Assembly (NCBI GenBank): GCA_951406725.2
Contig: OX597814.1
Span: forward strand, 115,134,001-115,198,000
Direction of reading: 5' to 3'
Source of the DNA: Octopus vulgaris
Lineage: Eukaryota
Length of the DNA: 64,000 nucleotides
Part shown: positions 1,241 to 62,262 of the stretch, piece by piece
Position numbering within the stretch: position 1 is the stretch's first letter
Layout: each line of letters starts with the position of its first letter
Translations under genes and position numbers: made by a program
Notes under the pieces: generated by a model
The model's input: the letters and a program-made list of their open reading frames with translations, nothing else
What the model was told of the DNA's origin: nothing
The model's database searches: none

Positions 1241-1340
1241 TATCATTGACAGTGCCTTCGAAGTTTCGGACAGCTAAGCAATCGTCAGACTGCTGAATAT
1301 AGCTTAACTGATAAGAACTTCGAAGTCACTATCAATGATA
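1241..1340. repeat. Palindrome of two head-to-head degenerate hammerhead motifs
   Basis: TATCATTGACAGTGCCTTCGAAGTTTC...GAACTTCGAAGTCACTATCAATGATA. Minus strand reads CAGT-CTGACGA-..-GAAA-CTTCGAAG-GC-ACTG. Confidence 0.7.
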
Positions 1341-1804
1341 TTCTTGATAGAATTATATACATATATATGTATGTGTGTGTGCATACATGTATAATGTTGG
1401 GTATGGCGATATATCAGGAATATGATGTACTTCGAGGAAGTAATTGAATACGGATAGCATAATCGTGTATTCTGAAATTAAAAGTGGTTTTGTCGCATAT
1501 AATTATATTGCAGTGTTTGTTATATCGCTTGGTCACTTGCAAACATGTGTTTACTTCCTAAGTAATGAAGCAGAAACGAAAATCTTGCTAAATTTGGAGT
1601 TTTCCAGCTTTGTAGACTGTTATAATTTAATGGGGGAAATTAATTAGTGTCTCTGGTTAATGACGAAAATATCAACACTCATTCATTAATGCGTGTGGAT
1701 GTATATATACATATATATATCTGTGTGCGTGTGTGTATATGTGTGTGTGTGTGTGTGTGTGTGTGTGTTTATGCGTGTTATACGTACGCAACACACATGT
1801 ATAT

Positions 1805-2036
1805 ATTTTTCTCTACTACCCACAAGGGGCTAAACACAGAGGGGATAAACATGGACAGACAAACGGATTAAGTCGATTACATCGACCCCAGTGCGTAACT
1901 GGTACTTATTTAATCGACCCCGAAAGGATGAAAGTCAAAGTCAACCTCGGCGGAATTTGAACTCAGAGCGTGACGGCAGACGAAATACGGCTACGCATTT
2001 CGCCCGGCGTGCTAATGTTTCTGCCAGCTCGCCGCC
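1805..2036 (-). mobile_element. tRNA-derived SINE family B (~230 bp)
   Basis: Reverse complement GGCGGCGAGCTGGCAGAAAC...CTGAGTTCAAATTCCGCCGAGG...CTTTCATCCTTTCGGGGTCGAT..AAGTACCAG; repeated many times in the window. Confidence 0.9.
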
Positions 2037-2179
2037 AACACACATGTATATATGCATGCATACATACATAAATGGGTGGATACATACATACATAATGCCA
2101 TCCAGAAAAATGAGTGTCAACTCAAGGAATACAAGCATCAACTCAAGGAATACTGGTGGAACATTCCCATCAAAACATG

Positions 2180-57260: not shown

Positions 57261-59235
57261 TTCTAGTTGAATGTTAGGAAGGGGGGAAAAACGGTTGTTG
57301 GAAAATGAAGTAATAAAGGTGATATGGTGAAATGGCTGATGATGGTTAGAGAAGTTTGTTGAGTAGGATAGGCATTTGAGAAAGTAGTAGGAAGTGGATG
57401 TGAAGTGTTAGTGTTACTGGAAATCCAGGTGAGAGACTGGCAGATTGGATTATGTGTGCAAATACGACATTTCAGAGCAAACTTGATGCACATACTGTAT
57501 GTGTGTATATATACATATACATACATTATACATATACATACATTATATATATATATATATATATGTATAGATATATATATACACACACAATCAGTTGAGA
57601 ACGAATACAAACTCTTCAACAGGCACAAAATACGCATAAGTATATTTATATTTTACACACACACACACACACGCGTGTGTGTATGTGTTTGCAATTCAAA
57701 ATTCTTTTTGTACTAGTGTAAACGAACTGTTCAGTCCGAGAATCGAACCGATGGTCTACCGATCGTGAGTGCAATACTCTAACCACTTGGCCACGCACCT
57801 TCACGCACACACACACACACACACACACACACACACACACATTTATATATTATGTGATATTTGAAGCAAAATATGTACAGTATTAATAACATCTAACAAG
57901 ATTGAAAAATATAAACATATATCAATTAAATACTAAAGTGGCTTTTAATATGTGTGTGAGCGTGTGTGTGTGTGTGTGTGGAGATAGAAAATATATAGAT
58001 AAATAGATAAATAGATACATACATACATACAAACGTTCAAACAGACATTTCTATATATACGTGTTTCACAGATAATAACGTAGTAGTCTGTGGTGTAAGG
58101 CCGTCAATAATGTATGAGAACACGCGAGAATATGAAGTACTTGTGAGTAAATGTAAATATTGTACTGGGCGCGTTAACTTAGATTTAATCAAACGTCCCC
58201 CGTTCTATCAATACATATGCCTGTATCGAAATTGAAATCTGTGGGTGGCACATCAGGTCTGTATTGAGGCTAGGCTAGGTCGATGTAGACGTGATTTCAA
58301 ATTTTCTCCTTTAAAATTTCAATCTATTTTTTCCTTTTTTTAAATTTCAGCAAAATGGATCCGTGAAACTTTTATGAAGGTTCATGCTGGAAGTATGCTT
58401 AATTGTGGCCTGATAGTTTATTGAACTTTTTTATATATGTATAAAGATGGTGTTGCGTGTGTGTGTGTGTGAGAGAGTGAGAGAGAGAGAGAGAGGGTTT
58501 AGATTCTTGGGTGTTTAAGATATGAAAAACAGTTGTAAATGGAAGTGCGCTGTTTGATCTGTGTGGTGTGACATGGTGTTGCTGATCTGGTGTTAAAGGA
58601 TTTTACATTTGGACAGGATAAAATCATATATGCATCAGCACCCCTAAAAACAGCTGTAAATTCACAGCTTTATTTCTACCGCGTTGTACAGAACATACAA
58701 ATATAATATTAAAGGACTGTCCAACAAAAATTAACCCTTCATTGTATAAATCTGAATTTATACTACAATATTCAAATTTACTCATAAACAGCTTGTTTCC
58801 CTGCAGGTTTTCATAAATTAGTGTCATTCAGTACATGATATAAAATAAGTCGTCCTGATGGTTGAAGTGAGGGAAAATCCCTAGCTTTACGCCAGACGAA
58901 ACTAGATATCTTCATTTGAACATGAAATTTGAGTTGCTGCTCAAAACTACTAAGTTATTGTATATAGACGGCATTTAATTGTATAGAGTACTTTCAATTT
59001 CTGAACCTATCAACAAACAATAGACGTGCGTATGTGTGTGTGTGTGTGTGTGTGTGTGTGTGTTTATATAAATGTTGAGAGGGAGAGGTAGCGAATTGGT
59101 AGGGTTACTAGAGCGTCGGGTCTAATACCTAGCGGTGTGTGTGCGCGCGCGCGTTGATCTGTACTAAAAAAAACCATTGATAATAATTTCAATGTTTCAG
59201 CTTATTAGCCATTATCAGGATTCTCAGTCATCAAA

Positions 59236-59670
59236 TAGGAGTGGCTATGTTGTAAGTAGCTGGGCGTAGGAGTGGCTGTGTGGTAAGTAGTTTGCTTACG
59301 AACCACATGGTTCCAGGTTCAGTCCCACTGTGTGGCACCTTGGGTAGGAGTCTTCTACTATAGCCTCGGGCCGACCAAAGCCTTGTCAGTGGATTTGGTA
59401 GACGGAAACTGAAAGAAGCCCGTCGTATATATGTATACATATATGTATGTGTGTGTATATGTTTGTGTGTCTGTATTTGTCCCCCAACATCGCTTGACAA
59501 TCGATGCTGGTGTGTTTACGTCCCCGTAACTTAACGGTTCAGCAAAAGAGACCGATAGAATAAGTACTAGGCTTACAAAGAATAAGTCTTGGGGTCGATT
59601 TGCTCGACTAAAGGCGGTCCCCCAGCAAGGCCGCAGTCAAATGACTGAAACAAGTAAAAGAGTAAAAGAG
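59236..59670 (+). mobile_element. SINE family A with duplicated 5' segment
   Basis: AGGAGTGGCTATGTTGTAAGTAGCT precedes a full copy starting at ~59263. Confidence 0.88.
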
Positions 59671-62065
59671 TATTTATTCTACTTAAAGCATTCAGTCATC
59701 CTTCAGTTCAATATTAAATTGCCTTTTATATATAACCCCATCTAAAAACAAGAACTAAATCAACACTAATGAAGCAGGTCTGTGGCTAATGGTTTTCTAC
59801 CTATGACCATCACATCTTTCAGTAAGGTAAAACAGGAACTGAGTTCCATTTTTAGTAAATGGTTACTGCGTAGTCTCTGTCTTGTAGGCTCCGATGAATG
59901 TCCTTTGGTTTTTAAAGAAGGTAAGGTATTCTTCGAGGAAGATTTAACTGTAGTTTAGAACCACTCACATATTGATCGTCAATGGGTCTGTAAAGATATC
60001 AATAGTCGGTAGTAACAGAGGAACAGAGGTGTCTGGATGGATATGTAGTTGATTAGGTAAACAAATAGGAACCTTAGATCTGGAGCACATCTGTAGAACG
60101 CCATAAAAACTAAACAATAAGATATGAATTACGACTTTCATTCATGTTTTTATATATACTTTATTTATTTGAAACTAGACTGCTTTGGACTCACCAGGCG
60201 TCGTCAAACTACTTATCGGCACAAATTATATATACATACAGCTATATATACACGAACGCACTCCCTCAAATGTGTTTGTGTGTCTATGGAAGTATGGTGA
60301 GTGAGAGAGACGCATAGGTATATAAATACACATATATGTGTGTGTATAGGTATATATGTGTGTATAGGTATATATGTGTGTATAGGTATATATGAGTATA
60401 TATGTGTGTATAAGTATATATGAGTATATATGAGTATATATGTGTGTATAGATATATATGAGTATGTGTGTGTGTAAATATAATTATATAGAGAGAGATA
60501 AATACTTAGTACGTACAAGTACGTACTTAAATGCGAAAGTGTGTGTGAGTGATGGTGGTGGTAGTTGTGGGAAGCGTTTGTTGTTTGCGTGCGCGTATGC
60601 GTGTTAATATTCATTTAAAATGATGACAGATATAAAACCAATTTAATGATGAGTGAATAAAAAAAATTTTAACATCCAAAGCAATTTTTTTCATGACTAT
60701 TCTGTTTACCTCCTGCGTGAGCTGAGAGGTATTTATCACGTTTACATTTTTGCTTTTTGTTGATTGATCTATGCTAACATGCAAGTATTTGTGCATATAA
60801 ACATATATACATGTGCGTTTGTTTGTATTTATGTATGTATATATACGTATATACACATGTGTATGCATTTATGTATGTGTATATATATTATATATATATA
60901 TTATATATATATGTATATATATGTATATATATATTATATATATATGTATATATATGTATATATATATATTATATATATATATGTATATATATGTATATAT
61001 ATGTTATATATATATATATATGTATATATATGTATATATATATTATATATATATAAATACATACTCATATGTGCGTCTATACATATATGTATATATAAAC
61101 ACACACATATATATACGCAGGTATGTATACATGTATATGTGCGTGTGGTGTGCATGTATGAAAGTATTGTACACATATATGCATATATATATATATATAT
61201 ACAATAGTGTGTGTGTGTGTATATATATATATATATATATATATATATATATGCATGTATGTATGCATGCATTTATGTTTGTGTTCATGTATGTAAATAT
61301 TGTACGTGTGTACGTACGGATGAGTTGTATGTATATATGTACGTATTTAGATATGAGTTTATGTATATGCGTAAATATATGCGTGCGCGTGAGCTGCTGG
61401 AAGAAAAAGTAGTGTTGTTCAATAACTAAAGTTAATCAATTCGATGAGTAATCTTTCAAGAAGGGCATCTGTGTTCGAACCAGCTGCTCTCGGAACTAAT
61501 TCAATTTTCATTCGTTTTAAACAATAAAATAATTGGGAACAGAAGCTAATTGATTAATTTTTGTGGAATTAAGGTAGCCACATTTCCTTAATGAGTAAAG
61601 AATTTTTTTTGTCTTTGATCTTTTAACTATGGTTCTTTAACACAGTTTCCTTGCCAATGGCTGCAGCCATGCGCGGGAAAACATTTCAAAAGATAACGTG
61701 AAAAGAAAACGATGATCAATCATGAATATGTAAAGAGAGAATGACAAAGATACATGTACAGAGAGAGAGAGAGAGAGAGAGTGGGAAAGACATAAAGTCA
61801 CACACATCCATACATAATACGTATATATATGTACATACATATATATACTTTACATATGTAATTTAGATTTAGTTCAATTAGGTACTTAAATTGAGGCACC
61901 TTGTTTGGACGAACTAATTTGCACACTCAAGCAGTCTTAGGTGAGTATCAAACTCTACGAAGACATTTTGATCTCCCCTGTTACTCTTACAGTGTAAGTA
62001 TATGTCTGTAAAGATTTATGTAAATAAGTATATATATATATATATATATATATATATATATATAT

Positions 62066-62262
62066 GTGACCTCGTGTGTACCGTTGGCGATTTTTTTCCT
62101 CTGTCTTCCCTTCTCTGGATCTTTCCTTCTCCTCTGTTTCCGACGAAGAGCTCCGCTCGAAGCGTTAAACCCTCCTTCTTTCCTGAGCGTCCAATAATAC
62201 TATATTTGTTCCACGTCCTCGCGTTGTTGAGTTTTTTGTGCTTTCTTGTTTGGATTAACTTT
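62066..62262 (+). mobile_element. ~190-bp (TA)n-embedded element with minimal HHR variant
   Basis: Flanked by (TA)n on both sides; 62136-62170 reads GTTT-CCGACGA-A-GAGC-TCC-GCTC-GAAG-CG-TT-AAAC. Confidence 0.7.

Follow-up and report, generated by a model that had tools for sequence, protein, structure and literature searches.

Why does one stretch of octopus DNA carry more than ten motifs that resemble the hammerhead ribozyme (HHR), with different stems but a single architecture? The window analysed here is the whole stretch of 64,000 nucleotides of Octopus vulgaris (GenBank assembly GCA_951406725.2, contig OX597814.1, positions 115,134,001 to 115,198,000 of the forward strand). A sequence-only reading of this window had listed 13 such sites, and had proposed a large, probably under-annotated system of non-autonomous ribozyme elements mobilised by Penelope. 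Our analysis showed that the motifs are real but decayed, and that they fall into at least seven repeat families. These dispersed, decayed minimal type I hammerheads very probably represent, for the most part, the 3'-terminal ends (pseudo-long terminal repeats, pLTRs) of Penelope-like elements (PLEs), together with short passengers copied by the same enzymes.

Motif architecture and comparison with shuffled sequence

Fifteen motifs were parsed by hand: the 13 listed sites together with 37897, the second arm of its insert, and 17340, an inverted copy. The CUGANGA/GAAA/UH core was intact in three motifs, and showed one deviation in eight and two deviations in four. An unpaired extra base between positions 9 and 10.1 was found in 12 motifs, in agreement with the earlier remark that a base is often added after CUGANGA, and the G10.1-C11.1 pair was found in ten. 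Stem III had been described as usually palindromic; it is a perfect palindrome in only four motifs, but near-palindromic in most of the others. Across eight copies stem II was 93.8% paired, with double-sided changes at three of the four pairs; the expected covariation is thus partly borne out, the figure being partly circular as the motifs were chosen for folding. The next AT-type microsatellite 3' of the 13 motifs lies at a median distance of 209 nt (925 nt at random, p=0.003), and that on the 5' side at 419 nt (919 nt at random, p=0.064), some of these tracts belonging to neighbouring short interspersed elements (SINEs). The association of the inserts with AT microsatellites, already noted in the earlier reading, is supported on the 3' side and less clear on the 5' side. 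This median test replaced a test with a 270-nt cut-off (10 of 13 motifs), which had been picked post hoc. The minimal hammerheads of PLEs are published with an additional base following A9, a stem III that is palindromic, and a location beside (TA)n close to the insert's 3' end, and the motifs share this architecture.

All the strings listed earlier were present at the positions given. A strict type I descriptor (perfect core and contiguous helices) found one match, at 15641-15719 (-), and 12 shuffles gave 0-1. When one core mismatch was tolerated, the window gave 2 matches against 1-3 in the shuffles, and 1 against 0-2, again without excess. A decay-tolerant log-odds scan, with 25 shuffles of 200-nt blocks as the control, found 11 matches at 16 bits or more (shuffle mean 2.2, maximum 5), 6 at 18 bits or more (0.96), and 4 at 20 bits or more (0.24). 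The excess is real; its size is soft, because the parameters were chosen once the motifs were known, and because the matches are not independent, since the families recur. The density of motifs therefore exceeds that of shuffled sequence in the tolerant scan but not with the strict descriptors.

Eight of the 11 matches at 16 bits or more are sites listed earlier. The other three (474, 53615 within a Tc1 copy, and 62743 within a remnant read by eye as a long interspersed element (LINE)) are about the number expected by chance, and were rejected as probable chance matches. Lower scores were obtained for 17016 (15.6 bits), 37897 (13.9 bits) and 8402 (11.8 bits), each of which is homologous to stronger copies. 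The sites 10761, 15844 and 43798 were absent from the 45 top matches. Those at 15844 and 43798 are weak motifs inside clear repeat inserts, a high-copy repeat and a partial tandem, respectively. The site at 10761 was set aside as probably a chance match or too decayed; its stem II is unpaired, it has no homologue in the window, and its E-value was 3.6. The claim of more than ten motifs thus stands as far as the strings are concerned, but most of the copies are damaged and one site is unsupported. About 11-12 credible motifs remain in the 64 kb, one per 5-6 kb with decayed ones included, close to the one per 5 kb estimated before. Faint hammerhead-like strings near the noise level were also seen at 476-503 (+), 8760-8800 (+), 15200-15237 (+) and 34790-34850 (-). 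A count of the pattern GAAAC..GTH (65 versus 41) was dropped, since SINE tails inflate it.

Most of the motifs might in principle be chance matches in unrelated repeats, such as SINE tails or foldbacks resembling miniature inverted-repeat transposable elements (MITEs). The lack of enrichment with the strict descriptors, the roughly two matches of at least 16 bits per shuffle, the random appearance of the three unlisted matches, the failure of 10761 and the foldback-like palindromes of family A all agree with this explanation. The Rfam searches agree as well: no hammerhead was matched at the gathering level, none was among the 26 matches at E<=10 in 15385-17985, and none was among the 150 of 403 matches listed for the whole window. 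However, the tolerant scan was enriched about five-fold, and the stems carry compensatory changes. The extra base and the palindromic stem III recur although they lie outside the descriptor, and the majority letters of independent copies repair precisely the stem positions. Moreover, a held-out copy was recovered at 59195-59222 (the best held-out match of the model R2, E=0.13), which aligns to family A through stem III and the tail. Chance is therefore a very improbable explanation for most of the motifs.

Repeat families and the structure of their inserts

The inserts are listed in Table 1. In family A, the arms of the insert at 1214-1353 (motif 17.5 bits) are 72% identical to each other and 73-79% identical to 37862-37994. 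The arms of 37806-37994 are 76% identical, and only one of them has the longer tail. The inversion centre of family A is the 5' edge of the hammerhead. For both palindromic inserts the predicted structure is a long hairpin (z=-8.6 for 1214-1353 and z=-11 for 37806-37994), which in the model would exclude the hammerhead fold. The term ribozyme was thus too strong for the genomic copies, given that 12 of the 15 have a damaged core. For three of the four family A inserts, the 5' end of a member of one SINE family of about 450 bp is no more than about 60 nt away (1200, 38034 and 59237), in varying orientation; the adjacency may be either a common target preference or chance.

Table 1. Positions of the hammerhead-bearing inserts in the window.
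Feature	Position	Strand	Remarks
Family A palindromic insert	1214..1353	-	Hammerhead 1250-1292 (-) and tail; decayed inverted arm on +
Family A single arm	8375..8460	+	Motif 8402-8442, stem I lost; 84% identity over 32 nt to 37939-37970
Family A palindromic insert	37806..37994	+	Head-to-head motifs 37931-37971 (+) and 37897-37941 (-)
Family A additional arm	59165..59225	-	Motif 59195-59222 and tail; absent from the earlier list
Family B element	16893..17120	-	About 230 nt; motif 17016-17050, CCGACGA core; 84-86% identity to 62064-62286
Family B copy	62064..62286	+	Between (TA)n tracts; motif 62136-62170, CCGACGA core; 18.4 bits
Family B relative	23750..23945	-	Between (TA)n tracts; motif 23843-23878; 16.4 bits
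Family C 3' end	15385..15800	-	Hammerhead 15642-15718; abuts (TA)n tract 15341-15382
Family D 3' end	15800..15966	+	Weak motif 15844-15931 (A9>C); ends at TA tract; back to back with family C
Family E pair	17271..17907	+	Direct 5'-truncated copy 17497-17907 with motif 17762-17837
Family E inverted copy, internally deleted	17271-17477		Motif 17340-17415 (-); upstream of the direct copy
Family F insert	35235..35518	+	Motif 35335-35392 with intact core and 12-nt palindromic stem III; (TA)n 127 nt further
Family G unit	43631..44066	-	About 340 nt with direct end repeat of about 100 nt (1.3 units), inside (TATTA)n; weak motif 43798-43839
Family H insert	48706..48870	+	Follows (AAT)n; motif 48754-48798 with 5-bp stem II

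The family E arms are 81-82% identical; the core is intact, and stem III reads ACAGCTGT. The end repeats of family G are 78-79% identical, its motif has two core deviations, and the unit has no open reading frame (ORF) and no Pfam match. No tandem array of two or more hammerhead-bearing units was found in the window; the only partial tandem is this 1.3-mer, with one motif. An inverted or partial-tandem structure with a one-sided tail was seen at 17271-17907, 1214-1353, 37806-37994 and 43631-44066. Around the family G insert and its (TATTA)n tract, two inverted repeats of about 470 bp (43148-43594 and 44203-44697, 89.6% identical) were also observed. They are foldback- or MITE-like, and no hammerhead was recognised within their arms.

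The family C motif is the only strictly intact hammerhead of the window (27.2 bits), and the family F motif scored 28.0 bits. Families F and H are single in the window. A stretch at 47940-48047 matches the family C 3' end at 63% and stops short of the hammerhead. Just downstream of the family F insert, a near-perfect 15-nt unit is repeated seven times (35546-35648) at the head of a repeat that begins after (TA)n, and this head is seen again at 35878 and 47490. Immediately 5' of the family H insert, the head of a tRNA-like SINE, tailed by (AAT)n, was read by eye at 48540-48705, where ARAGORN found no tRNA.

Contigs from four public runs were aligned to 15385-17985 at 80% likeness, which covers four of the 13 listed sites. 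The summed depth was about 20,000-85,000 times the single-copy depth for family B, and tens to thousands of times for families C, D and E; these ratios are orders of magnitude, not true copy numbers. The depth of family C climbs about five-fold towards 15385, and that of family D (roughly 10^3 copies) grows towards 15966. The rise towards both outer 3' ends fits 5' truncation. At 15645 the majority letter replaces a wobble pair in family C stem I by a Watson-Crick one. At 15705 it misfits stem II of this family without further changes, which may lie beyond the best 40 of 154 majority-letter rows. Among the 15 of 157 contig joints listed, repeat artefacts dominated, and neither an empty-site allele nor a circle junction was found. 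The family patterns had no match in metagenome contigs or viral contigs. Among the data sets listed as containing these sequences none is recorded as RNA, which says nothing about expression.

Families C and D were also considered as homologous arms, which was rejected because there is no homology between them. A divergent contig (31 differences) bridges their junction over 15665-15856, and the opposed arrangement of two hammerheads may recur at other loci. This contig spans both families, and 15385-15966 could be read as one element with two unrelated hammerheads, one per strand, although we regard this as unlikely.

In family B, all three copies (17016, 62136 and 23843) share the 5' boundary after a TA tract. 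The depth is level across the element and drops about 160-fold beyond 17124; reads are cut at the TA tract near this position, so that longer copies are compatible with the drop. In stem I and in the ACGT palindrome of stem III, pairing is restored by the majority letters at 17017 (96-99%) and 17023 (92-98%). Stem I also shows a compensatory change, from GTTT/AAAC in family B to CTTT/AAAG in the relative at 23843. When modelled from sequence only, family B had no other clear copy in the window. The U4C change (CCGACGA) occurs in both family B copies and in one family A arm. It cuts activity in vitro yet is tolerated in a viroid (PMC3088659). The loose-end consensus of family B has C4 in two DNA runs, a CpG-decay form in the third, and U4 in a possible RNA run, and a master copy with C4 is plausible. 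Family B might tentatively be seen as a SINE-like Penelope passenger with a fixed length of about 230 nt, dispersed as 10^4-10^5 monomers across several related species from a master copy with the weakening U4C; we give this fuller picture a minority chance.

Comparison with Penelope-like elements and retrozymes

Cervera and de la Pena (2014, PMC4209133) report the minimal hammerheads (min-HHRs) of metazoan PLEs as single dispersed motifs and as opposed pairs separated by 100-700 bp. The window motifs resemble them in the type I fold, the short stem I, the extra base between 9 and 10.1, the G10.1-C11.1 pair, and the palindromic or absent loop III. They also resemble them in the many families per genome, mostly present as single motifs, and in the opposite-strand pairs. 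In contrast, the window copies are heavily decayed, and Octopus is not mentioned in the part of that paper available to us. By depth, family B on its own seems to surpass the range of 2,000-9,000 intact motifs given there for a genome, the two figures not being like for like. The Hydra-clade PLEs have inverted 5' copies, one-sided tails of 30-40 bp and (TA)n targets (Craig et al. 2021, PMC8557442). Their hammerheads, including that of Hydra-1_Obim (Octopus bimaculoides), lie about 30-350 nt from the 3' end by our calculation from this source. The (TA)n targeting, the hammerhead near the end of the 3' untranslated region (UTR) and the inverted 5' copies are shared with the window inserts. The stem III of 17762, family A and 43798 corresponds to the Hydra-clade types ACAG..CTGT, ACTT..AAGT and ACCA.TGGT, respectively. 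No window family appears to be Hydra-1_Obim itself, and no ORF is present that would show the CxCX5C linker and the DKT and RWK motifs of the Hydra clade; Neptune or Poseidon donors are possible.

A Penelope-like origin of the motifs is likely, because their architecture and 3' position, the proximity of (TA)n, the presence of inverted 5' copies and the one partial tandem match the published anatomy of PLEs (PMC4209133, PMC8557442). The proposed mobilisation by Penelope thus gains support from architecture, while no coding link was found. For the PLE protein, which combines a reverse transcriptase (RT) of the telomerase-like type with a GIY-YIG endonuclease, the following steps may be proposed from published PLE biology. 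The protein would nick AT-rich microsatellite DNA, and reverse transcription would begin downstream of the hammerhead, at a distance of tens to a few hundred bases. Premature stops would leave non-coding ends of 100-600 nt that retain the motif (families C, D, F and H). A second, inverted copy would give the head-to-head palindromes (A and E), and a tandem or circular template might give the 1.3-unit insert (G). With its fixed ends and a copy number in the tens of thousands, family B would be a non-autonomous passenger of about 230 nt. Two motifs of the source RNAs may pair through the palindromic stem III, which would allow a slow dimeric cleavage (PMC4209133, PMC6765202). The genomic copies would have decayed later, and are probably inactive.

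Several results weigh against this origin, in addition to the lack of strict enrichment. Beside the motifs, no remnant of an RT or GIY-YIG domain came to light, which leaves the link to Penelope an inferred one. Pfam searches of 112 of the 184 motif-flanking frames (those omitted being mostly SINE and microsatellite frames) gave no PLE-type match; with eight further frames, the 120 frames matched ankyrin and Tc1 transposase, besides two spurious families, and nothing else. A search for RT and GIY-YIG motifs revealed nothing convincing beside the hammerheads, and a protein search with the 17497-17706 frame upstream of 17762 gave no homologue. No family could be matched to a named autonomous PLE, and the 3' end and HHR motif of Hydra-1_Obim are absent from the window. 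Single motifs outside the long palindromes did not fold better than their shuffled versions (z from -1.5 to +1.2), and both arms of 17762 lack the G10.1-C11.1 pair in stem II. The contig evidence is limited to the four covered sites and to the best 40 of 154 majority-letter rows, among which no row restores U4 in family B. The absence of PLE domains is weak evidence, because inserts this short need not reach the ORF; in the Hydra consensus sequences, the hammerhead follows the stop codon only after at least 100 bases of UTR (PMC8557442). Three short window motifs had no relevant match in the Craig 2021 supplement, in which line breaks may conceal some.

The metazoan non-LTR retrozymes are also comparable; their units measure 200-350 nt, are non-coding and carry a type I hammerhead (PMC7229834), and families B and G are of this size. 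Retrozymes are proposed to derive from the pLTRs of PLEs and to use PLE enzymes (PMC7229834; 10.64898/2026.07.22.740005). All the families might therefore be purpose-built, non-autonomous monomers of this kind, spreading through self-cleaved circular RNAs. The 5' boundary shared by three of three family B copies, the similar depth along its length, and the 1.3-unit family G insert without an ORF speak for this explanation. The monomers of frog retrozymes are likewise scattered along chromosomes (10.64898/2026.07.22.740005). However, retrozymes are defined by tandem hammerhead units and circular RNA, whereas the window has scattered monomers or a 1.3-mer, with one minimal motif, and its elements are not tandem retrozymes. 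The motifs are minimal rather than canonical, and gradients of 5' truncation or inverted arms, typical of ordinary PLE insertions, occur in families C, D and E. These make the retrozyme explanation for all families improbable. Only families B (17016, 62136 and 23843) and G look like fixed non-autonomous units; the others fit 5'-truncated PLE ends. The term mini-elements thus applies to these two families only.

The Poseidon element PAc of Anolis offers the likely mode of insertion: it nicks AT-rich DNA, starts reverse transcription downstream of the HHR and leaves a one-sided tail (Frangieh et al. 2024, PMC11167929). PAc also inserts in vitro without HHR cleavage (PMC11167929). It is a vertebrate Poseidon whose ORF begins inside the HHR (PMC11167929), whereas such an ORF start was not recognised in the window. 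If family B is a passenger with U4C, its hammerhead fold would be a docking signal for the PLE protein and not an enzyme. A fixed passenger with a weakened core would then be a natural test of whether PLE hammerheads act as catalysts or as protein-docking folds.

The families are new members of an already known type of PLE hammerhead. Dispersed minimal hammerheads from truncated PLEs were already described in 2014 (PMC4209133); the suggestion of a large under-annotated system therefore holds in that Rfam misses the motifs here, but the system is not new. In O. vulgaris, 31 recently active PLE families are reported, and the available text does not mention ribozymes (Bonar et al. 2026, PMC13282606). 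Octopus Penelope expansions were also described, in a text that, as far as available, leaves hammerheads unmentioned (Marino et al. 2022, PMC8967140). For the giant squid, 235 Rfam hammerhead hits are given (PMC6962438). No family-level account of octopus minimal hammerheads was found in the literature, a search that did not cover Repbase, Dfam, the Zenodo O. vulgaris repeat library or the paper supplements, where the families may already be listed.

Genomic setting

All the hammerhead-bearing inserts sum to about 3.2 kb, or about 5% of the window. The significance is modest: standard RNA-family scans miss a repeat class of this extent here, and some octopus repeat families emerge that may have to be classed as PLEs. 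If the passenger interpretation of family B is correct, this share would rank the octopus among the heaviest hammerhead loads reported.

An ankyrin-repeat exon of a TRPC channel was found at 9405..9563 (+), with a 53-aa product 100% identical to the TRPC proteins of Octopus bimaculoides and O. sinensis; Pfam matched Ank_4 in it. Many of the hammerhead inserts are probably intronic. The copies could accordingly be imagined as host ribozymes maintained for processing of the TRPC intron, with three of the 15 cores intact. Both strands are used, however, and most motifs are mutated. The copies are also ordinary members of high-copy families, and the long hairpins of family A are predicted to exclude the fold. 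We consider a role as maintained host ribozymes extremely improbable.

The window is otherwise dense in microsatellites and SINE-like repeats. A Tc1/mariner transposon remnant lies at 53400-55050 (-), with a Pfam match to HTH_Tnp_Tc3_2 (E=2.8e-18) and a weak one to DDE_3. Four further segments (37330-37570, 46300-46720, 48900-49400 and 62740-62960) had no database match, and by eye they resemble LINE reverse-transcriptase remnants.

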